A DNA stretch of 64,000 nucleotides. It comes from a virus. The stretch is taken from positions 2,167 through 66,166 of IMG/VR virus record IMGVR_UViG_2816332652_000003. One strand, 5' to 3'. Of the stretch, positions 6,491-28,212 are shown one piece after another. Both the position numbers and the translations under genes were made by a program. Within the stretch, counting starts at the first letter, position 1. Each line of letters starts with the position of its first letter. The notes below the pieces were generated by a model. That model searched no databases, had not been told where the DNA came from, and saw only the letters and a program-made list of their open reading frames with translations.

Positions 6491-7003
6491 TGAACAAATA
6501 CAATGCAACCAAGGTGATCGTTACTGAAGACGGGACATTGTTCTCGGAATGGATCGTTAAAAAGCACAATCTGGATATAACCGGTATACGATTCGATAGC
6601 ATGGCTGAGGGGGAGTTTTTATCAGCTCCTACTCCAGCAAAAGAGGTTTGGGGAGATTAAATCCTTTGAATGTCATCCTAAATTTGTTCTTCAAGAGAAA
6701 CCGAAGGTCACTTACATTGCTGACTTCCTGGTAACGGAATTAGATGGCAGTCAGCGGGTGGTGGATATAAAAGGAGTGGAGACCTCCACATTCCGAGTCA
6801 AACTGAAACTATTCCAAGCTAAATATCCGACTTTACCAATAGATATACTTGTTAAAAAGCGAGGAGAATTCATTCCTCTTGCACAATACAAGAAGGAAAA
6901 ATCAGCGCGTAAACGGGCGGCGAATGCACTTAAAAAACGAGTAGATGAGGGGAGAATGCAAAATGAAAATCAAACATACCGTAATCAAAAACGAGGACGT
7001 TAA
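6490..7003 (+). pseudogene. DUF1064-family endonuclease-like gene, frameshifted
   Basis: MNKYNATKV...RFDSMAEGEF reads in frame to 6618; an extra T in TTTTT (6616-6620) gives a stop at 6658; the +1 frame continues YQLLL...TYIADFLV...VVDIKG. Confidence 0.8.
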
Positions 7004-7256
7004 TAAGCACCTTAACCAACAGGAGAAAGAAGACTTGCTTCGCTTGTTTCATAAAATTCAGTATGGTCGAGTATCGGAGGGGAAAGTTGGGTTCAACATG
7101 TACCTGGTCGTAAATACTGACGAAACTTACGCTGAAGATATTGTACGGATCTTACAAGAGAACGGTCATTGGGAACCAACACACGATCCAAGTCAAATCG
7201 AGTTTCGGCAAGAGGGTAATACGATGGAGCTTCCAGAAACTGAGGTGGAGGCATGA
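6957..7256 (+). CDS. Hypothetical phage protein
   Basis: ORF with RBS GAGGGGAG before ATG 6957. Confidence 0.6.
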   Translation, partial: CKMKIKHTVIKNEDVNKHLNQQEKEDLLRLFHKIQYGRVSEGKVGFNMYLVVNTDETYAEDIVRILQENGHWEPTHDPSQIEFRQEGNTMELPETEVEA

Positions 7257-7535
7257 GTGGACAAAGCCCTGAAACCAAGGGCAAAGGAAACATTTCCTTA
7301 CCTCTTGTACGAAACATTCTACTTGAACTTAATAGCCAATTGGGAGGTGTGCTCTGTGACTGAAGCTGAGAAAGATGAATTCTCCACAGATTTATCTGAA
7401 CGGTATACACAGGTTAAACAGTTAAGTTCTTCTAACAGAGAATTGATGAATACTTGGGATGCGGTGATTAGTGACTTGCCTTTAGATATAAAATCAAGGT
7501 TTGAAGAAAAACAGAGTCAAGTTTCGGCTTTGTAA
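7257..7535 (+). CDS. Hypothetical protein
   Basis: ORF within the operon. Confidence 0.5.
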   Translation: MDKALKPRAKETFPYLLYETFYLNLIANWEVCSVTEAEKDEFSTDLSERYTQVKQLSSSNRELMNTWDAVISDLPLDIKSRFEEKQSQVSAL

Positions 7536-10666: not shown

Positions 10667-12063
10667 ATATACAGAAGGCAGGCATACCGATCAAAACGCT
10701 TCTGGCTCATTTTTGCAGGCATCGCGCTGCAAGCTGACTGTTAGTAAGATAATATAAATGAATATAGTACACTTTAACTAAAGGTGGTGATTAAATGATT
10801 CTAGCTAAAAAAGTTAGAATTCGACCAACTCCTGAGCAGGAGAAGCAGTTGTGGCGTTCGGCAGGGACGGCTCGCTGGGTCTACAACTTGACGCTTGCCC
10901 GGCAAATAGAGAATTACCAGAATGGCGGGAAGTTCTTGCACGATGGAGTACTGAGAAAAGAGTTGACGCAACTTAAGAAGCGAGAAGAATATGCTTGGCT
11001 GTACGATGTTTCCAACAATGTAGCAAAACAAGCCGTAAAAGATGCCTGCGATGCCTACAAGAAGATGTTCAAAGGACAATCCAAGAAACCGAAGTTCAAG
11101 ATCAAGAAGCGCTCCAAACCAGCGTTCTACAACGATACAGTCAAGTTCAAGGTCAAAGACAGTAAGGTCTTACTCGAAAAAATAGGCTGGGTGGCAACTT
11201 CTGAACAACTTCCAGAATCGGACAAGTACAGCAATCCGCGAGTATCATTTGACGGTAAGTATTGGTACGTATCCGTAGGTATTGAGCAGAAGCAAGAAAG
11301 CTCTGAACTGTCGGACGAGGCGATTGGTATTGATGTAGGTATTAAAGAACTGGCGGTCTGTAGTAACGGAATGGTCTTTAAGAACATCAACAAGACAGCC
11401 GCCGTAAGAAAGACGGAGAAACGATTGCGGAGGTTGCAACGCAAAGTGTCCCGCAAATATGAAATGAATAAGGAAGGAAGCCGTTTCGTCAAGACATGTA
11501 ACATTGTAAAAGTCGAAAATTCCATTCGTTTGCTTCATCGGAGAATAACTAATATTCGCGGCAATCACATCCATCAAGCAACAAACGCAATAGCGAAAAC
11601 CAAGCCTAGCGCTGTTGTGATGGAAGACTTGAATGTTAAAGGGATCATGAAGAACCGATACTTAAGTAAAGCAATTGCAGGGCAAAAACTGCATGAGTTT
11701 ACCCGACAAATGAAATACAAGTGTGAGAAGATAGGCGCAAGGTTTATCCAAGCCGACAGGTGGTTCTCTTCATCGAAATTGTGTTCGTGTTGTGGGCGGA
11801 TCAAGAAAGACTTGAAATTATCTGATCGTACCTATGAATGCGATTGCGGATTCATTATTGACCGAGATATGAACGCGGCAATCAATTTATCTAAATTGGC
11901 GAATTAACACTTACACGTTATCGCTGATATGTAGGATTCGTTGTATCCGAATTTACGCCCTTGGAGTGTTATATCAAACAAAAGTAGTCTCTGGACAAAA
12001 TTGGGCACGAGGAAAAGGGAAGCAAACAAGGATTGTGTAGATTTATACAACTCTTGGCAACGG
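10667..12063 (+). mobile_element. Non-autonomous IS607-type element (tnpB only, no tnpA); left end inferred
   Basis: The right end terminates in ...CTTGGCAACGG (12063), as IS607-family ends typically do. The left end is placed after AAGGAGGG (10659-10666). No transposase ORF is present. Confidence 0.6.
10795..11907 (+). CDS. tnpB: TnpB RNA-guided endonuclease, catalytic residues intact
   Basis: N-terminal HTH; RuvC-I IGIDVG, RuvC-II VMEDL, Zn finger CSCC..CDC, RuvC-III DRDMNAAIN. Confidence 0.95.
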   Translation: MILAKKVRIRPTPEQEKQLWRSAGTARWVYNLTLARQIENYQNGGKFLHDGVLRKELTQLKKREEYAWLYDVSNNVAKQAVKDACDAYKKMFKGQSKKPKFKIKKRSKPAFYNDTVKFKVKDSKVLLEKIGWVATSEQLPESDKYSNPRVSFDGKYWYVSVGIEQKQESSELSDEAIGIDVGIKELAVCSNGMVFKNINKTAAVRKTEKRLRRLQRKVSRKYEMNKEGSRFVKTCNIVKVENSIRLLHRRITNIRGNHIHQATNAIAKTKPSAVVMEDLNVKGIMKNRYLSKAIAGQKLHEFTRQMKYKCEKIGARFIQADRWFSSSKLCSCCGRIKKDLKLSDRTYECDCGFIIDRDMNAAINLSKLAN

Positions 12064-13853: not shown

Positions 13854-14024
13854 ATGGAAGTTAACTATTACAGTAGGAATGAGCCAGCTATACCCGGAGT
13901 TTCGGATAAGCAGCCAGAGCAGTGTCGTGGTTGTGGTTGGGGGACATGGACGGGAGTGAATCAATTATGTATTATGCCGAGATGTTGGAAGGAGAACCAT
14001 GATCCAGAGAAGGTGATGAAATGA
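13854..14024 (+). CDS. Cys-rich micro-protein, copy 1 (56 aa)
   Basis: RBS GGAGG; KQPEQCRGCGWGTWTGVNQLCIMPRC; stop overlaps the recombinase ATG. Confidence 0.65.
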   Translation: MEVNYYSRNEPAIPGVSDKQPEQCRGCGWGTWTGVNQLCIMPRCWKENHDPEKVMK

Positions 14025-14581
14025 GAAAAGTACAGCCGATCCGCGATGAACGGGTTATAGATGGAATGAAAGAATACTTCTATATACGAAGTAAGCGAAA
14101 TTACTTATTTTTTTGTATGGGCATATACAGCGGACTTCGAGTATCTGACTTGCTCGAACTCAAGGCGTGGCAAACTAAAGGGACCCATATCAGTATGGTT
14201 GAGCAGAAAAATAAGCATGCGAAGACTTTTATTATCCATCCGAGTATAAGAGAGGATCTGGACGAATTCACTGCTGACATGCGACCAACTGATTATCTGT
14301 TTGCTAGTCGTCAGATTAAAACGATCAGCCGTATGCGAAATAAACCGATCGATCGGACAACTGCCTATCGTTTTTTACACGAAGCAGCTCAGGAATTCAG
14401 GTTAAAGGATATCGGAGTCCATTCATTGCGGAAGACATGGGCATATAGGCTCTACATGGACAATCCTGAGAACCTAGCGTTACTAATGGATATGTTTGGA
14501 CACAGCGATCCAAGGGAGACTTTGGACTATATCGGGCTGACTCAGGACATGATGGACAAGGCAATCTTGAATTTGAGGTGA
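14021..14581 (+). CDS. Small tyrosine recombinase (catalytic domain only, XerC/D-like)
   Basis: GLRVSDLL (R), HSLRKT (HxxR), FGHS, and Tyr in TLDYIG. Confidence 0.92.
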   Translation: MRKVQPIRDERVIDGMKEYFYIRSKRNYLFFCMGIYSGLRVSDLLELKAWQTKGTHISMVEQKNKHAKTFIIHPSIREDLDEFTADMRPTDYLFASRQIKTISRMRNKPIDRTTAYRFLHEAAQEFRLKDIGVHSLRKTWAYRLYMDNPENLALLMDMFGHSDPRETLDYIGLTQDMMDKAILNLR

Positions 14582-14586
14582 ATTTA

Positions 14587-14701
14587 GTGCAACACAATAC
14601 GGTTTATATTGCACTCATTTTTCAATTAGGAAGACATTAGATGAAGAAACATGTTTTTTCATGCCTGAAATGAGTGCAACAGAATTACCTTTATGTTTCA
14701 C
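14587..14701 (+). repeat. Two directly repeated dif/lox-like 11-6-11 sites
   Basis: GTGCAACACAA-TACGGT-TTATATTGCAC (14587-14614) and GTGCAACAGAA-TTACCT-TTATGTTTCAC (14674-14701), 87 bp apart. Confidence 0.7.
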
Positions 14702-14843
14702 TCAACTTACATTATTTAGTGAATATGAGTACAGAACAACAGCCTGCGATTCAGACGGAGGCTTATTTTGATTCGTAACGTTTGACTATTACTGACCTTA
14801 AATAGGAATTCCAACTCAATTACATGAAAGTGGTGATAATTTT

Positions 14844-15572
14844 GTGAGCAGGAAGCAGAATCCGAATCGTAAGAAGGCGTTCAAAATTTGGAAAGATAGT
14901 GGCGCTGTGATGAAGCCGAAAGAGATTGCGGAAAAGTTGGGCATCACATCTGAGTCAGTCCGGAAGTGGAAGTCACTTGATCAATGGGAAGGAAAGATGG
15001 CGAATGCTAAACCCGGTGCTCCTCGTGGCAATCAGAATGCTAAAGGTAATCGAGGTGGTAAAGGCGGTCCGCTCGGGAATCAGAAAGCTGTAACACATGG
15101 ATTGTTCCGTAAGTTCGAGCCGCAAGATCCTGAGTATTTAGAACTCATAGATATTGTTCAGCAAATGGAACCTATAGACATGATCTGGCATAACATCACT
15201 CAGGGATTCCGTAAAATCATTTGGGCGCAGCGTATCTTCTTCATCAAAGACAAAGAGGATATGACGAAAGAGTTGAAAAGGGAGAAACCAGGTGAGTATG
15301 GAGACGAATACGAATGGGAAATTCAATTCGCTTGGGATAAATATGCGAGTTTCATCAAGGCAGAGGCTACAGTCATGCGTGAGATCAGGGGAGCTATCAA
15401 ACAATTCCTTGATATCGCGCCGCAGGAAGATGAGCGCCGATTGAAACTGGATCAGATGCAGGCCAAAGTCGAGAAAACCCGCCTTGAGATTGAAAAACTG
15501 AAGAATGGTGATGGAGATACCGAGGATGATCTGATCGAAGATTGGGTGAAGGCGGTGGAAACTGGTGAGTAA
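14844..15572 (+). CDS. terS: Terminase small subunit
   Basis: N-terminal HTH (KEIAEKLGITSESVRKWK), GAPRGNQNA motif; overlaps terL. Confidence 0.88.
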   Translation: MSRKQNPNRKKAFKIWKDSGAVMKPKEIAEKLGITSESVRKWKSLDQWEGKMANAKPGAPRGNQNAKGNRGGKGGPLGNQKAVTHGLFRKFEPQDPEYLELIDIVQQMEPIDMIWHNITQGFRKIIWAQRIFFIKDKEDMTKELKREKPGEYGDEYEWEIQFAWDKYASFIKAEATVMREIRGAIKQFLDIAPQEDERRLKLDQMQAKVEKTRLEIEKLKNGDGDTEDDLIEDWVKAVETGE

Positions 15573-17019
15573 AGAGTCTCCACAAACTAAACGCAGATTC
15601 GCTGCATTCAAAAAACGTATTCCCGAGTACCGGAAGAATCCGGTTCTTTTTTGCGTGGAATTACTGAAATTTACTCCTGATGAGTGGCAAGCAGAAGTAA
15701 TGATGGACATAGCTGGAGGTCCGCGAGTGTCGGTGCGATCTGGACAGGGTGTTGGAAAGACCGGCCTTGAGGCTGCGGTGGCATTATGGTTCCTATCGTG
15801 CTTCCCGTTTCCGAAGGTTATCTGTACTGCACCGACTCGTCAGCAGTTGCATGATGTCTTATGGGCTGAGATTAGCAAATGGCAAGAGAAAAGTCCGTTG
15901 CTTAAACGGATACTCAAATGGACAAAGACTAAGATTTACATGCGAAATTATGAGGAACGCTGGTTTGCTACAGCCCGGACAGCTACCAAGCCCGAGAACA
16001 TGCAGGGTTTCCATGAGGACTACATGCTCTTTATTGTGGACGAAGCTTCCGGGGTTGAAGATCGTATCATGGAGGCTATCCTGGGGACGCTCTCGGGTGA
16101 ATTTAATAAGCTGCTAATGTGCGGGAACCCAACTCGGACCAGTGGTGTATTCTATGACTCTCACAACAGGGACCGGGCAGATTACAACACGCACAAAGTT
16201 TCCTGTCTGAACAGTCCTCGGACAAGTAAAGAGAACATAGCCATGCTTGAACGAAAATATGGTAAAGGATCTGATGTATGGCGTGTCCGAGTTGAAGGGG
16301 AGTTTCCGCGGGGCGAGTCAGAAACCTTTATCGCTCTGGAAGTGGCTGAGTTTGCTACCAAAGATGTAACCTTGGAACCGTCTGGAGATACCTTAACCAT
16401 CGGCTGTGACGTTGCCCGTTTTGGTGATGATGAAACATCTATGTACGCGGGGATAGGCCCAGTAACAGTTGGGCAGCATCATCATTTCAAGAAAGACACA
16501 ATGGTTACTGCTGGCTGGGTGTTGAACTTAATAAGAGAATTGCTTCCGCAGTTTCCAGAAGTCGTTCATACGAGAATCAGGATAGATGATACAGGTGTCG
16601 GTGGTGGTGTGACTGATCGGTTGAATGAAGTAATAGCAGAAGAAGGACTTCCGTATGAATTAGTTCCAATAAATAATGGATCGTCATCTTTGGATGAACA
16701 TTATGGAAACCTGGGCGCAGAAATGTGGGCGCATATAAAGGGACAACTGGAACAAAACATGAGCAATTATATAAACAATGAGTCCGCGGTCTTACAACTT
16801 CCTGATGATGATGTATTGACCTCCCAATTGACTACGAGAAAATGGTCAATGACCAGCAAAGGTAAGATACTTCTTGAAAGCAAGAAGGATATGAAAAAAC
16901 GTGGTCTCAAGTCACCGGATAGGGCTGACGCATACGTTCTCACCTTTGGTGAATATTTGCTGGGGGCACCTCAGTCAATAATGCTTCCAACAATAGGAGG
17001 TGTATCAATAAAAAGATAA
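15565..17019 (+). CDS. terL: Terminase large subunit (resembles the P1 PacB type)
   Basis: VRSGQGVGKT, LFIVDEASGV, GNPTRTSGVFYDSH, nuclease IGCDVARFGDD, SPDRADA. Confidence 0.95.
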   Translation: MSKESPQTKRRFAAFKKRIPEYRKNPVLFCVELLKFTPDEWQAEVMMDIAGGPRVSVRSGQGVGKTGLEAAVALWFLSCFPFPKVICTAPTRQQLHDVLWAEISKWQEKSPLLKRILKWTKTKIYMRNYEERWFATARTATKPENMQGFHEDYMLFIVDEASGVEDRIMEAILGTLSGEFNKLLMCGNPTRTSGVFYDSHNRDRADYNTHKVSCLNSPRTSKENIAMLERKYGKGSDVWRVRVEGEFPRGESETFIALEVAEFATKDVTLEPSGDTLTIGCDVARFGDDETSMYAGIGPVTVGQHHHFKKDTMVTAGWVLNLIRELLPQFPEVVHTRIRIDDTGVGGGVTDRLNEVIAEEGLPYELVPINNGSSSLDEHYGNLGAEMWAHIKGQLEQNMSNYINNESAVLQLPDDDVLTSQLTTRKWSMTSKGKILLESKKDMKKRGLKSPDRADAYVLTFGEYLLGAPQSIMLPTIGGVSIKR

Positions 17020-17089
17020 CAAGAAACTTTGAAATCATATTAAGAGGGAGGGTGATTATAAAGTAACTTGAATCTTCAATAAAACTGAT

Positions 17090-17391
17090 CTGCTGCGGGC
17101 AAGACGGCAAACGCTACGATTCTTATAGAGAAACAGCGCTGGGTGTACAAAAGATAGGACTTCTATACACACCAGTTGGAAAGGGCGCAGCGGCTAATCA
17201 AAGACGAAGAAGCCCGTAAAGCCGTTGATTACAGATACATTCAAGGTTATTCACGCAAAGAAACGATACTCTTCTTCCGGCGCGCTCTCAATGATAGTAC
17301 AATCAAGCGCAAGATCGATGAGGGGCTGGAGAGTGTCGCAAATACCTTGAAGCTAATCGGCTTTTTTGAGCAAGATGATGCAGAATACTAA
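17090..17391 (+). pseudogene. Relic of a second ArpU-like regulator (5' truncated, internal TAG)
   Basis: KTANATILIEKQRWVYKR*DFY...EGLESVANTLKL aligns by eye with VTANAVIMKDKRHANY...IANIANSLKF of 12179-12802. Confidence 0.65.
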
Positions 17392-17427
17392 AAGAGAAGC
17401 TGACGATTAATCGTCAGCTTCTCTTTT
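17390..17427. terminator. Perfect 38-bp palindrome, bidirectional terminator
   Basis: AAAAGAGAAGCTGACGATT/AATCGTCAGCTTCTCTTTT between convergent genes. Confidence 0.85.
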
Positions 17428-17435
17428 TTGCACTG

Positions 17436-19154
17436 TTATCCTTTAATGAAATCTTGCAGTTCGCTCTTAAAGAATTCCAATTTTTCTGGAGTGTTGTTTA
17501 ACACTAATTCAGTCAGTTCCATTCCATGAACTATTTTATTGTAGTGTAAAGAGTAACTTTCAAATAAGCGTTCTAACACTTCACTTCCAACGACATCTTT
17601 TAATACATTTGTAGAACCTTTTTTAGGGAATAATTTATTGTCATCGATTGATAATAATAAATGGTCGATTTTGCTCTTTATTAGATCTGGATCTGCAGCA
17701 GCTATTGATAAATTTCGATTAATGATTTCAGAAAGCTCATGATAACAGTCTAAAAAGTAGTTCTCGTACTCTCGTCGTCCCAAGATAATTATACTATCTC
17801 CATAGCTTTCTCTTAATGTGAGAAGTTTTTCGTCGGTTTTGTTATCTGCATCAATAATTATTTTATAAGGTATTGGACTCTCTGATATGCCACTTAGAAT
17901 TAAGTCAAGTTTGCCTTTATACGCTCGCATAGAAGAATTCTTATTAAAATAATTACCAGTTCCCTTCATATTTAATATTCTGTAATTATAACCAATCTGT
18001 TTTAAGCCGAAATGAGTGAGGATCATCGGAATTACAAGTTCCTCAGTTTGTCCTTCTACAAATATTACTTTATCAGATAAAGCAAAGTCACTATTACTAA
18101 CACCTATATCAGACAACACTTCTTGAATATGTTCTAACTGTGTGAAGGAACTTATCCCATTCAACTTACTTACATGAATTAAATATTTATCAGATGGATA
18201 ATTAATTAAAATAGGGGAATGCGTAGTGAATACAAACTGGTGTTCATTGCTATCGCTTACTAAATCATAGATGGCCTTCTCGGCAGAAGGATGTAAGAAT
18301 ACTTGTGGCTCATCAAATAGAACTATACTGTTTTCTTTTGTATAGAGTACACACAATAGTAATAAAACGTGAGTATAGCCACTTCCGCAATCTGATAAGG
18401 GAATTGGCGTATCTAAGCCTTCGAAGGATACACTTATAAAAGTCTGGTTACCTCCATCAATAGGAGTCCTAATAGTTATAACGTCAGTAAATATTTGTTT
18501 AAACGTTTCCACAATTTTATCAAAAGTTTCTTCTTCATTATTGTGCATAGAGTAAAGAAACCCATTAAGATTTGTCCCATCAATTTTTAAGTAATTGTTT
18601 AAAGTTGAAGTCTCAGTCGAAGGTACATGTCTAGAACCAGTTATATAAACAATTTTCTTGTTTAAAAGGTTCATGAAATTAGAAATAAATGTACTATTGG
18701 GGACTAATACGCTGTCTTCTTGATCGGGTATCACGAACATATATTTTGGAGCTACTCCAACTTTATGATAATTACTGTTAATGTAAACATCTTGAAAATG
18801 ATCGTTGTAGTATCCTTGTACTTTATTAAAAACTGTCACATTATGACTATTGAAATATCTTAAAAAAAGTCTGAACTTTTCTGAATACTGGATTGTAAAT
18901 CCTGGAGGTACATTATCATTTAGATAATTTACTTCTTCGTCTGACAAGGATAATTCTAATTCAATTTCGGTTGATTGAGTATCTAAGGCCGGGGAGTTTA
19001 GCATACCTTGTAGAACTTTATACAACGCTTCAATGAAAGCTGATTTACCTGTATTATTTTTACCTGCTAAAACATTCATTTTATTATGTAATTTAATCTC
19101 TCCTGAATCATCGATACTTTTGTGATTTTTAATACGAACGTTAAGAATTATCAT
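17436..19154 (-). CDS. OLD-family ABC-ATPase + TOPRIM nuclease (candidate anti-phage gene)
   Basis: Walker A GKNNTGKS, signature LSDCGSG, Walker B LFDEP, H-loop TTHSP, TOPRIM VEGQTEE and IIDAD; start set at ATG 19154 with its RBS. Confidence 0.88.
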   Translation of the reverse strand: MIILNVRIKNHKSIDDSGEIKLHNKMNVLAGKNNTGKSAFIEALYKVLQGMLNSPALDTQSTEIELELSLSDEEVNYLNDNVPPGFTIQYSEKFRLFLRYFNSHNVTVFNKVQGYYNDHFQDVYINSNYHKVGVAPKYMFVIPDQEDSVLVPNSTFISNFMNLLNKKIVYITGSRHVPSTETSTLNNYLKIDGTNLNGFLYSMHNNEEETFDKIVETFKQIFTDVITIRTPIDGGNQTFISVSFEGLDTPIPLSDCGSGYTHVLLLLCVLYTKENSIVLFDEPQVFLHPSAEKAIYDLVSDSNEHQFVFTTHSPILINYPSDKYLIHVSKLNGISSFTQLEHIQEVLSDIGVSNSDFALSDKVIFVEGQTEELVIPMILTHFGLKQIGYNYRILNMKGTGNYFNKNSSMRAYKGKLDLILSGISESPIPYKIIIDADNKTDEKLLTLRESYGDSIIILGRREYENYFLDCYHELSEIINRNLSIAAADPDLIKSKIDHLLLSIDDNKLFPKKGSTNVLKDVVGSEVLERLFESYSLHYNKIVHGMELTELVLNNTPEKLEFFKSELQDFIKG

Positions 19155-19305
19155 TATCTCTACCTCTATTCTTTTTCTATTAAACACAACAATACCATTA
19201 TAGTCCATCTTAGTATGTAATTAAGAGAGTGAATTATTGACCCAAATGAGAACCCTACATGACCTCGTTTAGAGATCATGTTGAACCCCACAAGACTATT
19301 TTCCC

Positions 19306-19325
19306 GTGATACATTAGGAACATAG
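19306..19325 (+). promoter_or_regulatory. Late-promoter-like motif, copy 2, preceded by TTGACCC/TTGAACCC repeats
   Basis: GTGATACATTAGGAACATAG; repeats at about 19238 and 19281. Confidence 0.5.
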
Positions 19326-19460
19326 AAAAAGGTGCGAATGAAATGCACAGCCGCACATACGGCATATGACTGGGACGTTCCTATTCTCGCCTTTTCTATT
19401 TTCAGGATTATCATTCCGTGAGCTTCAACGATATGATCATGTCGAGGTAATGCTCGGTAT
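19322..19460 (+). ncRNA. Putative structured RNA leader
   Basis: Closing stem ATAGAAAAAGG(19322) with CCTTTTCTAT(to 19399) encloses hairpins GCCG-CACATA-CGGC and GTGC..GCAC; a second GAGC..GCTC domain follows. Confidence 0.4.
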
Positions 19461-19503
19461 GATATGTAGCAAGAAGACGTTCCATTGAGAGAGGAGAAAG
19501 ATA

Positions 19504-19767
19504 ATGGATTCAACTATTAATGAGGAATTACAAGAAACAGCAATTGCATTTCTAAAGTGGGCTAGAAACACGCTTGAGAATGAGCCAGCTAATTTCGAAA
19601 CAATGAATTTGGTCCCTCAAGTTTCAGAAGTAGCTTGCACTATAATTACTCACTTAAGAGATCAGGGAGCTGGAGAGAGCCCTGAACATTATGTTCAAAA
19701 GCTCCAGCAACCACAAATAAAAGAATTAATATGTAAGACTATTTCTGAGTCTCTAAATAAGTTGTAA
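19504..19767 (+). CDS. Hypothetical accessory protein
   Basis: Strong RBS GAGAGGAG. Confidence 0.6.
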   Translation: MDSTINEELQETAIAFLKWARNTLENEPANFETMNLVPQVSEVACTIITHLRDQGAGESPEHYVQKLQQPQIKELICKTISESLNKL

Positions 19768-19987
19768 GTTCTTTGTGATATTGTTTTAGAACTTTGTTTG
19801 TCAATGAAGCTGATGCAGCTAATGTAATAGACGAAAGCATAATTAGTTCGGCGCGATCACCTACAAGTGATTGTAAACTTGCATAATTAGGTCCTTTTAT
19901 CGCTTCGTTAAGATTGTCTACAATAGCATCGGTTAATTCGGAAACCAATTCCTTTGTAACTCTATCAAAATCAAATTCAAAACTCAT
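19739..19987 (-). CDS. Hypothetical accessory protein
   Basis: RBS AAGGAGAG on the minus strand; 3' end overlaps 19504-19767. Confidence 0.6.
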   Translation of the reverse strand: MSFEFDFDRVTKELVSELTDAIVDNLNEAIKGPNYASLQSLVGDRAELIMLSSITLAASASLTNKVLKQYHKELTTYLETQK

Positions 19988-20339
19988 GTTTAATCTCTCC
20001 TTAAATAAAGTGTTGTGTGCAAATTACATTTTAGCAGAAAGAGGAAATAGCATGTTGGACTAATTACGAATTAGCAAGCAATCCGTAGTAAATGACGGGT
20101 TTGTTCCAGCTCATCGGGACTCACCCGTTTTCTGTTCCTTGACCTGCATATGGTAGCTTCAGTAAAATGGTCTTGTTCTTCCTCTAAAGTTACATAGTAC
20201 GTATGCATTTAAAGCAAAGAGCGTAGCGTTTTTGCGGCGACCGTTTCGGGCGCATGCTTTTAAGACGTATCACCAACATAATACATATCATTTTAAAGTC
20301 GTTCCTTATGGATCGGCTTTTTTTATTGGAGGAATTGAA

Positions 20340-20495
20340 GTGATCAGCAGCAGAAGACGGAAGAAGCAACGCATCCGTCTCAACAAGCAGCCAGAGAAAT
20401 GCAAAGGATGTGTATGGGGTAGATGGGATGGAGTGAAGCAGTTCTGTAGTAGACCTGTCTGCCCAAAAGAGGTAAAATATCCCTATCATATTTGA
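20340..20495 (+). CDS. Cys-rich micro-protein, copy 2 (51 aa, GTG start)
   Basis: Preceded by a terminator and GGAGG; KQPEKCKGCVWGRWDGVKQFCSRPVC. Confidence 0.65.
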   Translation: MISSRRRKKQRIRLNKQPEKCKGCVWGRWDGVKQFCSRPVCPKEVKYPYHI

Positions 20496-20512
20496 CATGG
20501 AAGGGAATTTAG

Positions 20513-21151
20513 ATGAGCGAAATTGATTATACTGGCTTGCTATTAATACCAGTAGCTACTGCACTCCTTACTACAGGAGCATTGTTAATTAAAGAATGGT
20601 TTCAAAGTAGCAATGCTACCAAAAGGGCTCTAACCGAGAAAAAGTTGGTTGAACTTTACAACCATTTGTACAGCACGGTTATTCGATACGAAGGAAGGTT
20701 GAGCATAAAATATAATAAAGAAGTCTATGATGTTGATCCGAACGGAAAAGAGATGTATAGGGAGATACCTGAGGCCGAAGATCCTGAAGTATGGGAAGAA
20801 GCTATCCAAAACGTCTCAAATGAAATTTATAATAAGATACATCTTTTAGAATATGATGATCTTGTTCTATGGCTTAAAGTTGAAAATGGTGCTCAAGAAG
20901 AATATGCACTGGAAGAACACTCTGTTAATAAAGCCCTGTCATATCGGAATTTTAGCAAAAATGTTAAGAAAAGCTATGGCCGATTATATAACGAATTCCA
21001 TTTAAGCACCCGAAAAAGGAAGAAAGCGAGAATCAAAGATATAAAAATCAGTATAAAGAATTTAAAACGAAATCCGTTTCTTGAGAAAGACGAGCGTAAG
21101 AAACAGAAAAAGAAGTTAAAAAAAGAAATTAAAACTATCAAGAGAACGTAG
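20513..21151 (+). CDS. Accessory protein with N-terminal TM helix and basic C-terminus
   Basis: GLLLIPVATALLTTGALLI; Lys/Arg-rich tail. Confidence 0.7.
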   Translation: MSEIDYTGLLLIPVATALLTTGALLIKEWFQSSNATKRALTEKKLVELYNHLYSTVIRYEGRLSIKYNKEVYDVDPNGKEMYREIPEAEDPEVWEEAIQNVSNEIYNKIHLLEYDDLVLWLKVENGAQEEYALEEHSVNKALSYRNFSKNVKKSYGRLYNEFHLSTRKRKKARIKDIKISIKNLKRNPFLEKDERKKQKKKLKKEIKTIKRT

Positions 21152-21325
21152 CACCCACAGTGGTGCTTTTTCTTTTGCTCTCATATGACAGAATGTGAGT
21201 CGGTTTAAGCTTCTCAGCATGAGAACGTCCGTTTGTAAGGATCAAACCATTGAAGAGCGGAGAACACCGTCTGATTGAGCGTACGCACGAATATGAAGCT
21301 CACCCAAACGTCGAAACCAACTCAA
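21150..21325 (+). repeat. ~175-nt conserved non-coding element, copy 1 (terminator + structured tract)
   Basis: Clearly homologous to 25427-25600. Confidence 0.8.
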
Positions 21326-21392
21326 CACAAATATTTATGTTCCTTCGCTCACATTTTGGAGGAAAAGGCTTGTTTTTGTTGAATTATTGTAG

Positions 21393-21941
21393 TTGAGGAG
21401 GGATTATATGGATATTCAAAAGTATCTTGATTCATTAAACAGCTCTGGTAAACACCATCTCGTTTTGGTTGTTGCTCCTAAAGGTGAATTTCCAACAGAT
21501 ATTATTGATCAAAAGTATTTGATGTTTGAGAAAAGCATTTTGAAAAATCCTAAATCTTATATAGGACTCTATGAAAATGAATTAGATGAGATTATGCAAT
21601 TCACAGCATTTCGGATATTTTTAAAAGATGAAGTAACTGATCACTACAATCTCCCATATAGCACTGTTGAGGGAAAGAAACGCGCGACCTCAGAAGAAGT
21701 TCTGAATTTCTTTGTGGTTAAGGAATTTTATAATCATGTGCCTCATGGAAATAAAAGTGAGGAAGATGCAATAACCGAAGGGACAGAGTCTGGAAGGGAA
21801 TTCCTGAAGAAGTACAATAATGATGAATACGAGTATGTTATCACTTCTTTGGGTAAGCACAGCAATGCTGCAAATGTATTGCTTGATATCAATTTCACGT
21901 CCAACGAGGCTTATCACTTCGACAAGGTTTATATTTATTAA
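21393..21941 (+). CDS. Accessory hypothetical protein (weak likeness to a relaxase fold)
   Basis: EFLKKYNNDEYEYVITSLGKHSNAANVLLDIN resembles MOBP motifs II-III without the His triad. Confidence 0.55.
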   Translation: MRRDYMDIQKYLDSLNSSGKHHLVLVVAPKGEFPTDIIDQKYLMFEKSILKNPKSYIGLYENELDEIMQFTAFRIFLKDEVTDHYNLPYSTVEGKKRATSEEVLNFFVVKEFYNHVPHGNKSEEDAITEGTESGREFLKKYNNDEYEYVITSLGKHSNAANVLLDINFTSNEAYHFDKVYIY

Positions 21942-22029
21942 GAGCTACAACTGTAATATACAAAGATGAAGGACTGACCAAAAGGTTAGTTCTTTTTTTG
22001 TTGCCACATTACTATAGGAGGTAGAGGAT

Positions 22030-22209
22030 ATGAACATCAGAATCGTGCCAATTGATCAGATTAATGCAGCAGCCTACAACCCCCGTGTTGACCTTCAACC
22101 TGGTGATGTTGAATATGAGAAGCTTCGCCGCAGTATAGAGGAATTCGGTTATGTGGAGCCGATTGTCTGGAATGAACTCACAGGGCATATGGTCGTCGGT
22201 CATCAGTGA
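22030..22209 (+). pseudogene. Truncated ParB-like phage gene
   Basis: YNPRVDLQPGDVEYEKLRRSIEEFGYVEPIVWN...VVGHQ then TGA where Arg is expected. Confidence 0.8.
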
Positions 22210-22213
22210 TACA

Positions 22214-22396
22214 AGAAAATACTCAATGAACAGCAAGGGTAAGATATTACTTGAAAGTAAAAAGAACATGAAGAAGCGCGGATTAAAATCACCGGACAGA
22301 GCTGACGCATATGTTCTCACCTTCGGTGAATATTTGATGGGAACACCACAGTCTATAATGCTTCCGTCAATAAGTAGTATGTCAATAAAAAGGTAA
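22214..22396 (+). pseudogene. Second, diverged copy of the terL 3' end (60 codons)
   Basis: 51 of 60 residues identical to the TerL C-terminus; many additional synonymous differences. Confidence 0.92.
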
Positions 22397-22427
22397 ACTG
22401 AAGATTCGATATCTCAGTCTTATAGTA

Positions 22428-22448
22428 GTGATAATATAAAGAGCATAG
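22428..22448 (+). promoter_or_regulatory. Late-promoter-like motif, copy 3
   Basis: GTGATAATATAAAGAGCATAG. Confidence 0.45.
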
Positions 22449-22800
22449 CAAACACACTAAAGGATTGAAGAATGCTTTGGCCCTCCCAAAGGGAAGGTAT
22501 GTTGGCAATCGAATGACCGTGAAACAGCAATACATCTAGGCAGAGAGGTTATGCCCTCTCCGGTGTGCCTAGTGCCCGTTATCGTACTATGACTCAAGCA
22601 TGCTGAGTGACCCAACAAGATTTTTAGTGACATCTTGCAGATGTGGCGGTGTTGGCGTGGGGGAAAGCGGATAGGATAATCGCTATTCTATTGTATCCTA
22701 TCAAGTGTAGCTGGAGGCATGTCCCTCCAAGGACTACTAGAAGGTTTGAATATGCTTTGCTCCTTCTTAGTGAGACATCCAAACGGGTGGTTCTTTTTTG
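22445..22800 (+). ncRNA. Putative large structured non-coding RNA (~350 nt)
   Basis: No credible ORF; at least 7 hairpins in series, ending in a U-tract terminator. Confidence 0.5.
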
Positions 22801-22877
22801 ATACTTGAACAGAGAGGGAACTGGAAGATGTTGTCGAATAATAACTAAAAACATCTAATTAAGGGGTTATAGACAAC

Positions 22878-24209
22878 ATGAAATTTTTATTTCCTGGTTA
22901 TTATAAACTTACTAACGTTGAATTAAGAGAATTGTGGGAAAGATGTAATTTTGTACTTGACACTAATACTCTGCTTAATCTTTTTAGATACCCAAAAGAA
23001 ACGAGTAACGTTATGTTGAAATTGCTCGAAAGTATTAAAGATAGGATTTGGATTCCGCATCAAGTAGCGCTAGAGTATCATAGAAATCTGGAAACGGTAT
23101 TATATGAACAAAAGAATGAGTACGAAACTCTTGAGAAAGAATGTATGTCTGAACTTTCTAAACTTATTTCAAAATTTAAAAAATTAAGACATTCTCATAT
23201 AAGTACTAATACTATGGTGCAGACATTAGAACAAAGTAGTGAAATCATAAGAAAAGAATTATCAAATCAACGTGAACAGCAACCTGATTTACAGGAAATA
23301 AAAAAAAGAATCAACAACTTGGTAGGAGAAAATATAGGATCACAATTTGAACAAGCTGAGTTGGTTAAAATATTCGCAGAGGGGGCTCAAAGGTACGGAA
23401 ATAAAGTCCCTCCTGGATATATGGATTCTAAGAAAAACTTCTCTTACCTTCATAATGGTATTGAATATCAGGCAGCATATGGAGATTTGATTTTTTGGAA
23501 ACAGACTCTAAAATACGCTCAAAATAAAGAGGTTAGTTCTATCATTTTAGTAAGCGATGATAGAAAAGAAGATTGGATTCTAGAAGTATCTGGTGAGAAA
23601 AAAGGAATACATCCGTACTTAACAAATGAATTTCATGATCAAAGCAAAGGTAAGTTATTTAACTCGTATAACTCTGTTCAATTTATTAGTGAAGCTGAGC
23701 ATTTTTTAGGATTTAAGAGTAGTGCAATTGTAAGTGATGTCATAAAGGAAATTGAAACTGTTTATAGTAAGGCGGATTCTTTCAAGGATAGTGAGAATCT
23801 AACTTATAATAATACTTTTAAGGAAAAATATAATTATAGAGAAAGACTCTATGATCATTATCTTGAAGATAAAAAGCGCAGAATAGGTGAAACAGAGTTT
23901 TACTTTTATAAATTTTTCTTTGACGTGAGTAAATCTTTTGTTGAAACAGAGGAAAGGAACAGCAATTCAGTTTATAATTCTAATAATCATAACGCTTTCC
24001 CAGTTATACTTAAAAAAATTGTAAAAGATTATATTATTAATGCCGAAATAGTTGAGATCAAATATGAAGGCGAATTTCTTACTGTAATAGTTGCAACTCC
24101 TTTTGAATTTGAATATTCTTCAATAGATAATCTAGCGGAAGCTATTAGTAAAGAAATGAATCAATACTATACTGAAGAAACTATTAGATTATTAAGAATA
24201 TTTGTCTAG
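22878..24209 (+). CDS. PIN-like domain protein (DUF4935 type), candidate defence RNase
   Basis: FVLDTNTLL, IWIPHQVALEY, YGDLIFW, VSDDRKEDW. Confidence 0.85.
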   Translation: MKFLFPGYYKLTNVELRELWERCNFVLDTNTLLNLFRYPKETSNVMLKLLESIKDRIWIPHQVALEYHRNLETVLYEQKNEYETLEKECMSELSKLISKFKKLRHSHISTNTMVQTLEQSSEIIRKELSNQREQQPDLQEIKKRINNLVGENIGSQFEQAELVKIFAEGAQRYGNKVPPGYMDSKKNFSYLHNGIEYQAAYGDLIFWKQTLKYAQNKEVSSIILVSDDRKEDWILEVSGEKKGIHPYLTNEFHDQSKGKLFNSYNSVQFISEAEHFLGFKSSAIVSDVIKEIETVYSKADSFKDSENLTYNNTFKEKYNYRERLYDHYLEDKKRRIGETEFYFYKFFFDVSKSFVETEERNSNSVYNSNNHNAFPVILKKIVKDYIINAEIVEIKYEGEFLTVIVATPFEFEYSSIDNLAEAISKEMNQYYTEETIRLLRIFV

Positions 24210-24590
24210 TAATTTAACTATGTTAAAACATTCTCTCTTTAATGAATGGTTTCTTTTATGTGTTCCGTGTTAAAGGTAAAAGCTTTCCAAAATGACCCTG
24301 ATATGTGACAGCTGAATTAGTAAATCAATATGCATACAAGAAGTGATATTAATTTGAATCTCGGCAAGAATAATGTGCCCTTTAATAGTCGATGGCCATT
24401 TCTAAGCCTGCATTCCCAATTGATTATGAAAAGAGGGGGAGGGAAAGAAAATGCCTAAAGTTACGTATAGATCAAAATTTTAGATGCCGCTACAGCTGAG
24501 GATGGGACAATAGATGAGTACAGTATGGGTTAAACCTATTGGAAAGCGACACCTAAGTTCGGATGCAATCAAAGAGCCACCTGTACCTTG

Positions 24591-24680
24591 ATGCAACCAG
24601 ACAAATGCAAAGGTCTCGTATGGGGCAGATGGGATGGAGTAAAGCAGTTTTGTAGTAATCCCTTTTTTTGAAAAATTTAA
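24591..24680 (+). pseudogene. Cys-rich micro-gene, copy 3 (degenerate)
   Basis: MQPDKCKGLVWGRWDGVKQFCSNP; the second Cys is replaced by Leu and the last Cys is missing. Confidence 0.7.
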
Positions 24681-24710
24681 AATAAACAAAATGAAGGGGG
24701 TGAGAGTGAC

Positions 24711-25427
24711 ATGGATAAACGGAAAGATTTATCAGCGCTGACTAACTTACTTGAAATTGATCCTGAATCGACTTTTAGCACAGCAATTGAATATACTATA
24801 AACCAGATGCCTTTTATAGGAAAGGTGTACAACACTTTGAAAATGAGGGCATTTGAGAAGAAAATAAATCGCTTAGAATCAAGATTGCATGTCTTATCTA
24901 ATCATTTATTGGAAAGGCCTGACGACCTCGTTAGTCAGTTCATTAAAAACAGAGCATTTCCCTTTATGTTAGATCAATTGTTAGAAGAACAACAAGAAGA
25001 AAAAACAGATTTGATAATGAATGGAATAGAATACATTTATGAACAAAGAATAACTGAAGAAAATAAGATGTTAATGCATTTTGATATTCTAAAAGAACTA
25101 AGAGTCAATGAGCTTAAATTCCTCTTAAGATTTACAGAGGAAGCTAAAGAAGTTGCTAGTAAAGAAGATCAACATGAGGAACCATCAGAAGATGAATGGA
25201 TTTACTATGAGTACATTATGACTCATCTCGAAGCACTAGGACTTATTGATACAGACGAAAGTTCTATTAATGTAACCAAGTTTAATATTGTAACTATTTT
25301 AAATGATATAGCTGCTAGTAAAGGGAAATATACCATACGTGCAACTCGACCGAGGCTAACAAAATTCGGGCATGAGTTTGTGAAATTTTTCGATTTAAAG
25401 TCATTAATAAGATTACCTGCACAGTAA
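24711..25427 (+). CDS. DUF4393/Abi-alpha-like accessory protein
   Basis: MPFIGKV...DILKELRVNELKFL...HLEALGLI...RLTKFGHEFVKF winged-helix-like ending. Confidence 0.55.
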   Translation: MDKRKDLSALTNLLEIDPESTFSTAIEYTINQMPFIGKVYNTLKMRAFEKKINRLESRLHVLSNHLLERPDDLVSQFIKNRAFPFMLDQLLEEQQEEKTDLIMNGIEYIYEQRITEENKMLMHFDILKELRVNELKFLLRFTEEAKEVASKEDQHEEPSEDEWIYYEYIMTHLEALGLIDTDESSINVTKFNIVTILNDIAASKGKYTIRATRPRLTKFGHEFVKFFDLKSLIRLPAQ

Positions 25428-25600
25428 GCACCCAACCGTGGTGCTTTTTCTTTTGCTCTCATATGATTAATATGAGCCGTTTTAAGCTTTATTCAGCAAG
25501 AATGTATTTGCAGGGATCAACCCGTTCAAGAGCGGAGAAGAGGCGCTGAGTGAGCGTATCCACGAATATGAAGCTAGTTCAGAAGTTGAAACCAACTCAA
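25427..25600 (+). repeat. ~175-nt conserved non-coding element, copy 2
   Basis: Homologous to 21150-21325. Confidence 0.8.
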
Positions 25601-25664
25601 TTTAAATAAGGATATTTTTGTTTATTTATAGTAAAATAATTACAAAAAATTAGGAGTTGGTATA

Positions 25665-26483
25665 GTGAGCACGTTTACTCAGAAGGAAGTCAAAAGAGCC
25701 ATCAGAGATTTTGAAGTTATTGCGACTTCTTTACTTAATGCTTCTTCGACTCATTTTTCAGCTAGAGTCACTCAATTTATTGATTTTATAGAAAGGAACC
25801 TTGTTATTAACTCAGTCCTAGGAGAATACCTTAATCTCCCAATAAATATTGAAGATATTGAATCGGATGAATCTGGGTGGTTACAGGTTTCTCTGCCTTC
25901 TGAGATGGACTATCAGATCGCATACATTTTACAGACTCTTGTATCTTTTAGACGGGATGAGAATGCTGTAATTAACTACACATTCCATCTATATAAAAAT
26001 AAAGGTATAGATTATAATATTCAATTATTTAATGAGGATATGTTGCAACCGATTGTACGGGAGATTTTTAATAGGTTAGAGGATTTAGTTGAAGACGAAG
26101 TTGAGGGGAAGGATAATATCCCGAGTTCCTCCTTATCTATTACACATATTGGAGATATTATCGCACATACAGGTAGTAATATTGCAGTAGGCAAGAACAT
26201 AACTCAAAATTTGAAAACAGGTGACATACGAACTGAAATCATAGATAAGCTCAAGGAACAAGGTGCTATTCCTGAAGATAAGATATCTGAAGTAGAGCCA
26301 ATAATTGCTGAGATTGAAGAGGTGTTAAGTGATGAGAGTAACCCTAATTCCGGAAAATTAAAAGATTTAGTTGGGAAAGTATACAACCTTGGAAAAAACG
26401 CTGCTTTAACTGTATTTAAGGATACTATAAAAGATCCACGCTGGTCTTCAGCTATCGCAGATTTCTTCCTTGGAGGAAACTAA
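25665..26483 (+). CDS. Accessory hypothetical protein
   Basis: 272-aa AT-rich ORF with RBS; no recognised motif. Confidence 0.7.
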   Translation: MSTFTQKEVKRAIRDFEVIATSLLNASSTHFSARVTQFIDFIERNLVINSVLGEYLNLPINIEDIESDESGWLQVSLPSEMDYQIAYILQTLVSFRRDENAVINYTFHLYKNKGIDYNIQLFNEDMLQPIVREIFNRLEDLVEDEVEGKDNIPSSSLSITHIGDIIAHTGSNIAVGKNITQNLKTGDIRTEIIDKLKEQGAIPEDKISEVEPIIAEIEEVLSDESNPNSGKLKDLVGKVYNLGKNAALTVFKDTIKDPRWSSAIADFFLGGN

Positions 26484-26763
26484 GATAAAAAGTTGCGATA
26501 CTATAAATAGTTGTTGACTTATCAGCAAAGAAAAGTCATTCCAACATTAGCGGTAAGATGCTTAATATAAACATAATCAAATCATGCTGTGATGGGAGAC
26601 TGTTGCAACTTTTTTTAGTGGGGGGGAGGTATGAGGATTGATGATTAAATCCGTAGTAACACTATAGTAACTCGATGATATTATTAATCCATAGAAGTAT
26701 GAAGAACTTTAGAAGGTAAGGAAACTTTTCCTGCCTTCTATTTTTATGTCTGGAGGTGAAACA

Positions 26764-28212
26764 TTGAAATGGTATCATAAAGCCATTTATTCATTTGCAA
26801 ATTCTGTTCTCCCAGCTGCGGTGAAGCGTCAGATGATGGGTTTTGGCAGGATGACCTCTCCAAGATCATCAAACGGATGGGATATATTCAATTGGCTCCC
26901 GAAAAAGTATCAGAGTGCTCATAATATTGATCTGACCAAACTCCAAAACCATACAGCTGAGGAATTGCTTGAGATTCTTGTGTCTGTTCATCCCGATATT
27001 TCGCATGCGCTCTACAATTTTTTGCGTATGGGTGACACTCCACTTACATTTACAGCAAAGAAGCAGAGTGGTAGTGACGATAAGAATGGGCAGAGGAATT
27101 TGGATTCAATCAAGAACTTATTGGATTCTCCACTTCCTTCACCTGGTTATCAACATGGAAGGTCTCTGGACAAGCTTGATACGATTCAGCGGATGATGAT
27201 CATGGTGCGTGGAGCTTGTGCTGGTGAAGTAGTTCTGAATGAGCGATGTAACGATGTGATTGATATCGTACCTGTTGACCCAGCGACGATTTGGTTCAGA
27301 AGAGAAGAGGGAACGGATCGACTTGTGCCTTGGCAATTCATCAAGAATCCACGTCCTCGTTCTGGTGAAGAATGGTTTGGGCAATACAAAAAGATTGATA
27401 CGCCGACATTTATATATGAAGAGTTCGATCCGATGATCGATGATCCATATGGGCGAACACCGATACTACCAGTTCTTCAAGCGGTTTTTTTTCATCTACA
27501 GGTTTTGCAGGACTTGAAGGCTGTTGTTCACAATCAGGGATATCCAAGACTGGATATTTCTGTAGTTGAGGAAGTTTTGCTCAAAAACATTCCTAATCAA
27601 TATAAGAATAATCCTGCGGGGCAGCAAACGTGGTTGACTGAACGTATGAGTGAAATTATGGGACATTTTAATTCACTTAATCCAGACGATGCTATGATTC
27701 ATTGGGATAGTGTGAAAGTTGAATATCTCAAGGGCGGCAATGCGGGCCCAATGATTGATATCAAGAAATTGATAGATATTATTGATACGCAGATGGCAAC
27801 CGGATTGAAAACGTTGCTCACATTACTATCCAGGCATCAAGGTTCTACTGAGACATACAGCTCCGTGGATACTCAAATATATATCAAGTCCGTAGAGTCC
27901 GCTCGAAACGTAACCAAGCGTTTCTGGAAGCGGGCTTTTTCTATGGCTACAAGAGTGCGTGGTGTTCAAACGCAGGTTGAAGCAGATTATGCTCCTATTG
28001 ATCTACGTTCTGAAATGGAGAGAGAGCGTGATCTGAGAGCGAAGCTTAACAACTATGTTCTGGCGGAGAAAGAACGCTACATCACTGCCAAAGAAGCGGC
28101 GACAGAAGCGCGGTGGATTATGGGGATTGATCCTAATATACCGTCTGAGTTGCTTGCTGGTCTTGAGAAGAAGTATGGGTCTGATGATGACGATCATGAT
28201 TCAGCAAGTTGA
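26764..28212 (+). CDS. Portal protein
   Basis: Size, position before the head genes, and PYGRTPILP motif; TTG start after GGAGGTG. Confidence 0.8.
   Translation: MKWYHKAIYSFANSVLPAAVKRQMMGFGRMTSPRSSNGWDIFNWLPKKYQSAHNIDLTKLQNHTAEELLEILVSVHPDISHALYNFLRMGDTPLTFTAKKQSGSDDKNGQRNLDSIKNLLDSPLPSPGYQHGRSLDKLDTIQRMMIMVRGACAGEVVLNERCNDVIDIVPVDPATIWFRREEGTDRLVPWQFIKNPRPRSGEEWFGQYKKIDTPTFIYEEFDPMIDDPYGRTPILPVLQAVFFHLQVLQDLKAVVHNQGYPRLDISVVEEVLLKNIPNQYKNNPAGQQTWLTERMSEIMGHFNSLNPDDAMIHWDSVKVEYLKGGNAGPMIDIKKLIDIIDTQMATGLKTLLTLLSRHQGSTETYSSVDTQIYIKSVESARNVTKRFWKRAFSMATRVRGVQTQVEADYAPIDLRSEMERERDLRAKLNNYVLAEKERYITAKEAATEARWIMGIDPNIPSELLAGLEKKYGSDDDDHDSAS

Follow-up and report, generated by a model that had tools for sequence, protein, structure and literature searches.

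Two copies of a non-coding element between terL and the portal gene

The stretch of DNA analysed here (the window) comprises 64,000 nt of the IMG/VR virus record IMGVR_UViG_2816332652_000003 (positions 2,167 to 66,166), which is a 67.5-kb provirus of the siphovirus type; all coordinates without a locus label are window positions. Its terL gene is separated from the portal gene by a 9.7-kb island (17020-26745) that contains a minus-strand OLD-like nuclease gene, a gene for a PIN_8 protein, several unknown open reading frames (ORFs) and two copies of a non-coding element, here called copy A (21150-21330) and copy B (25426-25605). The element is a real, conserved and unannotated non-coding piece of Paenibacillus prophages, and it forms a sharply bounded conserved island between two hypervariable slots for accessory (cargo) genes. 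We consider it probable that the element is a terminator followed by a late promoter/leader region of the ltr-terS kind, which heads the packaging operon.

In the earlier note on this DNA, the element was described as a 175-nt repeat, present twice and beginning exactly at the stop codon of a cargo gene. Both repeat copies were found as described, with 79% mean column identity (MAFFT) and long identical runs, and every conserved block listed at that time is present in both. When copy A was used as a BLAST query against its own 67.5-kb record, copy B was recovered with an E value of 4.4e-36 and nothing else was found. The count of two is nevertheless incomplete, as a third, strongly diverged version is present in addition to the two full copies, upstream of terS at about 14654-14822. 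The extent of 175 nt also had to be adjusted, with conservation reaching slightly further, to 21330 and 25605, where it ends sharply. The next ORFs begin 60-79 nt past the conserved part, at ATG 21409 or TTG 21393 after copy A and at GTG 25665 after copy B.

Both copies open with a terminator-like hairpin, followed by the same T-run in each, and the hairpins overlap the stop codons of the upstream ORFs (TAG and TAA, respectively, in the ORF list). A start at the cargo stop codon describes both window copies but not always the homologues, in which the stop is located 0-10 nt before the hairpin or inside it. The hairpin with its T-run is the 5' end of nearly all homologues as well as of the two window copies. 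The homologues carry other hairpin sequences with compensatory changes, which indicates that the stem of the predicted terminator has been kept by compensation. The stem CTCATAT/ATRTGAG that had been proposed to follow the terminator (P1 below) was found in both copies, with loops that differ between A and B.

Copy A shares 85-87% identity with copies from other genomes but only 74% with copy B, therefore the A/B pair is not a recent local duplication. The core of copy B is altered at positions that are nearly invariant elsewhere.

Distribution and sequence types of the element

Neither copy matched the INPHARED collection of sequenced phages (blastn), and the regulator and zinc-ribbon ORF that accompany the element (see below) also had no match there (tblastn). 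A strict pattern scan of viral contigs found no element, while with looser patterns a single copy was found in each of 10 IMG/VR proviruses and 11 Paenibacillus genomes. For the genome searches, a sequence-only covariance model was used (R1, built from alignment A3). It matched 45 of the 93 genomes in the genus-level group around P. amylolyticus, with 1-3 copies per genome, and 16 of the 151 genomes sampled from the family, ten of which had already been matched in the genus search. The six genomes that were new in the family search gave weak full-length matches. An independent profile, built only from five of the new family copies together with L073 and L076 (labels such as L003, L009 and L073 denote element-bearing loci in other genomes), matched both window copies with E values of 2.7e-12 and 7.6e-07 (nhmmer), supporting the homology of the family copies.

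Four sequence types could be distinguished among the copies. All four have retained the terminator, the initial ~45 nt and AAACCAACWCAAC as the 3' block, whereas the middle ~100 nt differs between types, the length still being 161-167 nt in most copies.

Position of the element in the late gene order

A common gene order was found in about 50 independent loci: a gene of the regulator family, the zinc-ribbon ORF, cargo, the terminator and element, cargo again, and then either a ParB-methylase gene with terS or the portal gene. The first late gene after the element is a ParB_N-DNA methylase gene, which is then followed by terS, or terS itself; the full ParB_N-DNA methylase genes were identified by Pfam matches. 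In loci that lack cargo, the ribosome-binding site of this gene begins 3-17 nt past the 3' block. Two of these loci, L073 and L080, have the ribosome-binding site of the methylase gene within 17 nt of the element, with terS as the next gene.

In the lineage-1 phages, which include the window, a homologous 3' block is located 10-15 nt ahead of the ribosome-binding site of terS, and it persists in relatives whose TerS proteins are 48-99% identical, in spite of changes in the sequence around it. A compact version occurs in L094 and L095, where the terminator is followed by a T-run with CATCGC, ~60 nt, the 3' block and terS. In the lineage-2 loci, co-directional genes extend from the element to the ParB_N-DNA methylase gene and terS, 1.5-4 kb away, and few strong terminators were found among them. 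The earlier note had offered an antitermination or promoter module as one option for the element. The promoter/leader part of that option is the best supported, by its position after the regulator and terminator and against the ribosome-binding site of the first late gene.

The third version in the window stands directly upstream of the resident terS. Its resemblance to copies A and B is limited to the T-run/CATGCC motif at the 5' end and the CCAACTCAA block at the 3' end, with the ribosome-binding site and GTG start of terS about 25 nt beyond this block. Exact CCAACTCAA sites occur three times in the window, at 14811 (before terS), 21317 (copy A) and 25592 (copy B). With nhmmer, a type 1 profile had no match to the region upstream of terS, and a type 3/4 profile gave a weak match to its 5' end only (E 3). 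A dispersed CCAACTCAA motif was also considered and was ruled out by its frequency outside elements, which is at chance level across the loci (5 seen compared to 3.75 expected).

The zinc-ribbon ORF and the candidate regulator

Homologues of the small zinc-ribbon ORF are located 350-1500 nt upstream of the element, on the same strand, in nearly all loci. The protein has an arginine/lysine-rich N-terminus (RRRKKQRIR), followed by CxxC...CxxxxC, and no family match was obtained for it in Pfam, PHROGs or NCBIfam. In the window, a 65-nt piece of this cysteine-rich ORF recurs at 13910, 20387 and 24593.

The candidate late transcription regulator belongs to a family of 200-aa proteins, and the family profile finds members upstream of type 1, 2 and 4 elements and of the terS-proximal versions. 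A search of PHROGs and a PDB sequence search gave no meaningful match. Its AlphaFold model (pLDDT 80) suggests a C-terminal domain that resembles sigma-70 region 4. The top VIA-align matches of this domain were region 4 of sigL (Z 7.3 and 7.1) and of sigE (Z 6.4), within a range of Z 6.0-7.3 for sigma region 4, and Foldseek returned 2h27 and 3hug (sigE and sigL region 4) with a probability of ~0.9. Two weak leads point to DUF1492 (the family of LtrB, see below), which is matched by one of the 22 family members (E 0.009) and is annotated on 43% of the members of an Atlas neighbour cluster. Identity of the regulators to the regulator relic in the island (Table 1) does not sort by element type, with 46-99% for type 1 and 59-86% for type 2 (tblastn).

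The region just upstream of the regulator gene (10795-12021) contains a TnpB gene (IS605 OrfB, with HTH_OrfB_IS605 and Cas12f1-like TNB domains), and a RAGATH-18 RNA match (Rfam RF03064, 66.7 bits) is found directly after it at 11958-12021. No tnpA was seen among the ORFs scanned.

Cargo slots and probable stacking of late-control regions

The variability of the flanking genes, for which the earlier note had suggested a survey, is high: 47 upstream and 41 downstream flank clusters were counted among ~48 distinct loci. It is this insertion of cargo on both sides that gives the module its appearance of an isolated conserved block with sharp edges. Defence-like genes are found in the slots beside the zinc-ribbon ORF and the element, and they encode a Mrr_cat restriction endonuclease, an FRG-domain protein, a putative AbiC, an OLD-like AAA_15/TOPRIM nuclease and PIN_8 (L008:1926-2537, L011:2142-2909, L011:5084-5869, and 17436-19208 and 22878-24209 in the window), and many other ORFs in these slots have no family match.

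Behind copy A, a ParB-methylase stub is fused to a 3' relic of terL, which indicates that copy A came from the late region of another phage. A third unit, before the portal gene, consists of PIN_8, a zinc-ribbon relic, cargo, copy B and cargo, and the close relatives L009, L010 and L021 carry a single such unit after terL. These arrangements are best explained by two further late-control regions, those of copies A and B, having been stacked between terL and the portal gene. Copy A would then derive from a phage with the order element, ParB-methylase, terS (lineage-2), and the 3' part of the methylase gene, terS and the 5' part of terL behind it would have been deleted later. Repeated or split terL fragments were also observed in L015 and L020.

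The cargo slot just before the terS leader of the window is occupied by a gene for a 186-aa tyrosine recombinase, which has the catalytic domain only (14021-14581; Phage_integrase, E 3.7e-16) and overlaps the stop codon of the zinc-ribbon paralogue. The same arrangement was found in L065 (about 6854-7319, minus strand), with a recombinase that is 41% identical.

The features of the window are collected in Table 1. Three sets of repeats were observed elsewhere in it: three tandem 138-nt units at 45401-45814, copies of a 30-nt repeat inside the ORF 62294-63886 (62341-62902) spaced by multiples of 42 nt, and an intergenic repeat pair (59 nt and 33 nt) with its members 4.5 kb apart, at 54570-54664 and 59078-59173.

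Table 1. Coordinates of the element copies, their partners and neighbouring genes in the window
Feature	Position	Strand	Remarks
Copy A, predicted intrinsic terminator	21150-21177	+	hairpin 21150-21167, then T-run; overlaps TAG of ORF 20513-21151
Copy A core, type 1, 164 nt	21167-21330	+	139.5 bits; P1 stem 21180-21199, middle blocks, 3' block AAACCAACTCAAC
Copy B, predicted intrinsic terminator	25426-25456	+	hairpin 25426-25446; overlaps TAA of ORF 24711-25427
Copy B core, divergent type 1	25445-25605	+	109.6 bits; P1 stem 25457-25475
Third, strongly diverged version	14654-14822	+	directly upstream of terS; 5' T-run and CATGCC motif; CCAACTCAA at 14811-14819
Candidate late transcription regulator, 207 aa	12179-12802	+	sigma-70 region-4-like C-terminal domain (model)
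C-terminal relic of second regulator, same family	17176-17391	+	E 6e-11; start of the putative stacked second late region
Zinc-ribbon ORF, 51 aa	20340-20495	+	conserved upstream partner of copy A
Paralogous zinc-ribbon ORF	13854-14024	+	resident late-control region
Degenerate zinc-ribbon relic	24594-24668	+	upstream of copy B; repeat D4
terS	14844-15572	+	resident packaging gene
terL	15565-17019	+	resident packaging gene
Cargo ORF, 212 aa	20513-21151	+	no family match; slot between zinc-ribbon ORF and copy A
Cargo ORF, 182 aa	21393-21941	+	after copy A; terminator at 21968-21995 follows
ParB_N-DNA methylase N-terminal stub, ~70 aa	22018-22230	+	76-86% identity to full genes in L003, L011, L073 and L080
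terL 3' relic	22210-22396	+	~79% DNA identity to 16833-17036 (repeat D2; the recurring terL 3' end spans 22210-22413); end of the putative stacked second late region
Cargo ORF, 238 aa	24711-25427	+	upstream of copy B
Cargo ORF, 272 aa	25665-26483	+	after copy B; portal gene follows
Portal gene	26746-28212		follows the cargo ORF after copy B

The element as a probable late-control region

Based on its layout, which matches that of the mapped ltr-terS regions (compared below), the element was read as a terminator with a late promoter/leader. It would control in cis the late operon (packaging and morphogenesis) that it precedes in a family of temperate Paenibacillus siphoviruses. The intrinsic terminator at the 5' end could end early or lysogenic transcripts that enter from the regulator, zinc-ribbon and cargo genes. 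The ~130 nt after the terminator probably hold an activator-dependent late promoter, of which the lineage-specific middle, different in each type, is likely to be the activator-specific part. The nearly invariant, C/A-rich 3' block could be the start, or the 5' leader, of the late mRNA ahead of the ribosome-binding site of the first late gene, and accessory genes, many of them defence-like, would insert on either side of the module. We infer that a promoter is located inside the element, that the protein with the sigma-region-4-like domain acts there, and that copies A and B may still fire. The low copy number of 1-3 per genome and the presence of invariant primary-sequence blocks without a supporting fold are consistent with such a control region.

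Several observations weigh against this interpretation. A consensus scan found no sigma-A-type promoter scoring inside the element, and no convincing -35/-10 pair for any sigma type was found there. Manual fits of ECF-type, sigma-54 and extended -10 promoters also failed, either on spacing or because key bases are not conserved. Several copies have their own sigma-A-like promoter 10-30 nt downstream, so at these loci the cargo downstream can do without the element. For the regulator, Pfam and NCBIfam gave no significant match, and its structural matches are all below Z 8 and may reflect a common helical arrangement. The terS-proximal region of the window is tied to the element by short end motifs only. 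Finally, most copies of types 1 and 2 retain the P1 hairpin and a second hairpin, P2, in which the + strand has more G-U than A-C pairs (58 to 22 for P1, 38 to 22 for P2). Part of the element may therefore act at the RNA level.

Some sequences just after the element recur between loci. A sigma-A-like module (TTGACC or TTGACT, 17-18 nt, GATACT, then GGAAG) is conserved 10-30 nt past the element in nine loci with different downstream genes (L009, L011, L043, L049, L050, L052, L057, L058 and L061), a second module (TTGTTT, 17 nt, TATGAT) follows it in L021 and L041, and L005, L040 and L053 have similar downstream sequence.

Alternative explanations

The alternative that survives best, although we regard it as unlikely, is that the element is an autonomous structured RNA, as the earlier note had also proposed. 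Such an RNA could be a put- or EAR-like leader for processive antitermination, a site bound by the basic zinc-ribbon protein, a small RNA or a ribozyme, and its fold, not the DNA sequence, would be the functional unit. The loops of hairpins P1 and P2 are variable, some pairs change on both sides (counts below), G-U pairs are more frequent than A-C pairs on the + strand, the length is held at 161-167 nt although the middle sequence differs by type, and an AGAGC/GCNCT stem is apparently replaced by ACGGC/GCCGT in type 4 (by eye only). A long late operon that is interrupted by cargo terminators would also gain from antitermination. However, the RNA comparisons and folding tests did not support an autonomous structured RNA. 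The Rfam scan of the window at the gathering threshold returned only the RAGATH-18 RNA next to TnpB and none at the element, and E-value scans of both copies gave only terminator-like matches below threshold, the best of which was ctRNA_p42d (21.7 bits against a threshold of 50). Folding energies were no better than those of shuffles, with z-scores of -0.70 and -0.73. For 21 type 1 copies, RNAalifold found a weak consensus of -11.9 kcal/mol with a covariation term near 0 and covariation confined to the terminator hairpin, and for 52 copies it found no consensus structure. Compensatory replacement was clear for the terminator hairpin only.

In the named helices (P1, P2 and two more), 80.9% of the cells are paired compared to 79.3% in shuffles, and each pair is broken in 10-25% of the sequences. 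Changes on both sides of a pair were counted in 26 cells, compared to 16.7 in shuffles; a count of 26 was reached in 3 of 500 shuffles and is within the range for unconstrained related sequences, so covariation is not convincingly above the controls. The middle part aligned poorly across types in this test. The per-type and single-sequence folds are inconsistent with each other, P1 is missing in several type 3 and type 4 copies, and the most invariant blocks are predicted to be unpaired. A type-specific fold of the element may exist.

A more elaborate version, which we regard as somewhat less likely still, combines both functions. Transcription of the element would yield a new phage leader RNA, possibly bound by the arginine-rich zinc-ribbon protein, that makes RNA polymerase resist the cargo terminators, and the element would in addition be the fixed docking point of a two-slot exchange of defence genes.

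It is improbable that the element is a recombination site or linker delimiting gene cassettes, whether a site-specific recombinase acts on it or related phages use it as a homology arm for swapping cassettes. This idea, also raised in the earlier note, fits the sharp boundaries and the flanks, which are nearly always different, and the stacked copies with 3' relics of terL between them. The small tyrosine recombinase is encoded in the equivalent slot of the resident region, and the zinc-ribbon ORF together with the element would form two homology arms around a cargo slot. A dedicated site is not supported, however, as only the window and L065 have a recombinase gene in association with the element, and no recombinase-type inverted core sites were seen at the ends of the element. 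The internal blocks and the 3' block before terS are more conserved than a passive linker would need, and homologous swapping also fits the regulatory interpretation, of which it could be a by-product.

Two other readings were rejected. A miniature inverted-repeat transposable element, or other small non-autonomous transposon, was excluded because of the low copy number (1-3 copies per 5-7 Mb genome) and the fixed context, which is always that of the same prophage; no terminal inverted repeats were seen in the element alignments. An integron attC-like site was rejected because no inverted repeat was seen to span the element, and a tyrosine recombinase was found only in the window and L065, in the cargo slot.

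We consider it very improbable that the element is a phage packaging signal, a pac or cos region recognised by the terminase. Its location near the terminase genes, its conservation as primary sequence and the single copy per prophage in most genomes would agree with such a signal. However, in many loci it is 1.5-4 kb upstream of terS with cargo between, and in others it comes after terL. In the window, the terS-proximal version is accompanied by two full copies that have the same orientation and are 4.3 kb from each other, and the terS genes found with the element may be no more than 31-44% identical. The 3' block, furthermore, abuts ribosome-binding sites in the manner of a leader.

A decaying protein-coding relic or small-peptide gene is scarcely credible. 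In the type 1 consensus, one frame is uninterrupted across the 3' half, and a TTG after a weak ribosome-binding-site-like AGGGA is present in most copies (by-eye reading). However, several copies have 1-2 nt indels (L003, L009, L021, L023 and copy B), and the TTG is missing from L005, L018 and copy B. The element lengths are not divisible by 3, and the genes on either side are unrelated. The invariant 3' block is read in different frames by types 1 and 2 (hand translation), leaving no reading frame common to the types and bearing out the earlier argument that the element is non-coding.

Significance of the element

With the terminator and late promoter/leader region as the preferred interpretation, the element provides a signature by which the late operon's head can be recognised during annotation of a widespread Paenibacillus prophage group, for which INPHARED contains no sequenced phage. 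It also marks two adjacent hypervariable slots rich in defence-like and unknown genes, and can therefore be used as an anchor for cargo mining. The probable stacking further illustrates how whole late-control regions can accumulate inside a packaging module without destroying it. The regulatory role that we infer is of a known kind, and the main value of the element is as an anchor of a cargo hotspot.

Comparison with known systems

The closest known layout is that of the ltr-terS regions in phages of Gram-positive bacteria. There, the activator gene is followed by a terminator, repeats specific to the activator and then the promoter of terS, and transcription has been mapped to start 28-118 nt ahead of terS (PMC3753634). 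The systems compared here were RinA in phi11/80alpha, ArpU in the phiFL phages, and LtrA (sigma70_r4), LtrB (DUF1492) and LtrC (PMC3753634, PMC3152322). As in these regions, the element is located between a late activator candidate and the first packaging gene on the same strand (cargo is intercalated in many of the Paenibacillus loci), and a terminator at its start would block read-through from the activator gene. Lineage-specific upstream sequence and a short leader before the first late gene are also common to both, and a sigma region-4-like domain is found in the regulator candidate (in the model) and in LtrA. However, there is no sequence similarity between the element and the ltr-terS regions, and the regulator matches no Ltr Pfam family above threshold. 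The Paenibacillus loci differ further in that a zinc-ribbon ORF is almost always present between the activator and the element, the element is flanked by cargo slots on both sides, and the first late gene is often the ParB-methylase gene and not terS. In these loci, the promoter and the binding of the activator are predicted.

The late switch of lambda (PR', qut, 6S RNA and tR') and the put RNAs of HK022 resemble the element as conserved non-coding units of 150-200 nt that include a terminator at the head of a long late operon, and the element could likewise set RNA polymerase to read through later terminators. Unlike in lambda and HK022, the terminator is at the 5' end of the element and not at the 3' end, there is no Q-like protein, and the two-hairpin fold of the element is without covariation support.

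In T4-type phages, promoter-early stem-loop (PeSL) cassettes are short units of a stem-loop and a promoter, present many times per genome in the early regions, which flank hypervariable accessory ORFs and can act as recombination linkers. The element is similarly a conserved regulatory unit beside hypervariable accessory ORFs, but it is ~165 nt long, normally single-copy and located at the late operon.

In the defence hotspots of P2 and P4 prophages, conserved core genes act as anchors that bracket slots of varied defence-like genes. The slots described here are anchored in a similar way and carry putative defence cargo of the OLD-like, PIN_8, Mrr_cat, FRG and AbiC-like kinds. The difference is that, in the Paenibacillus prophages, one of the anchors is not a core gene but a non-coding regulatory module.

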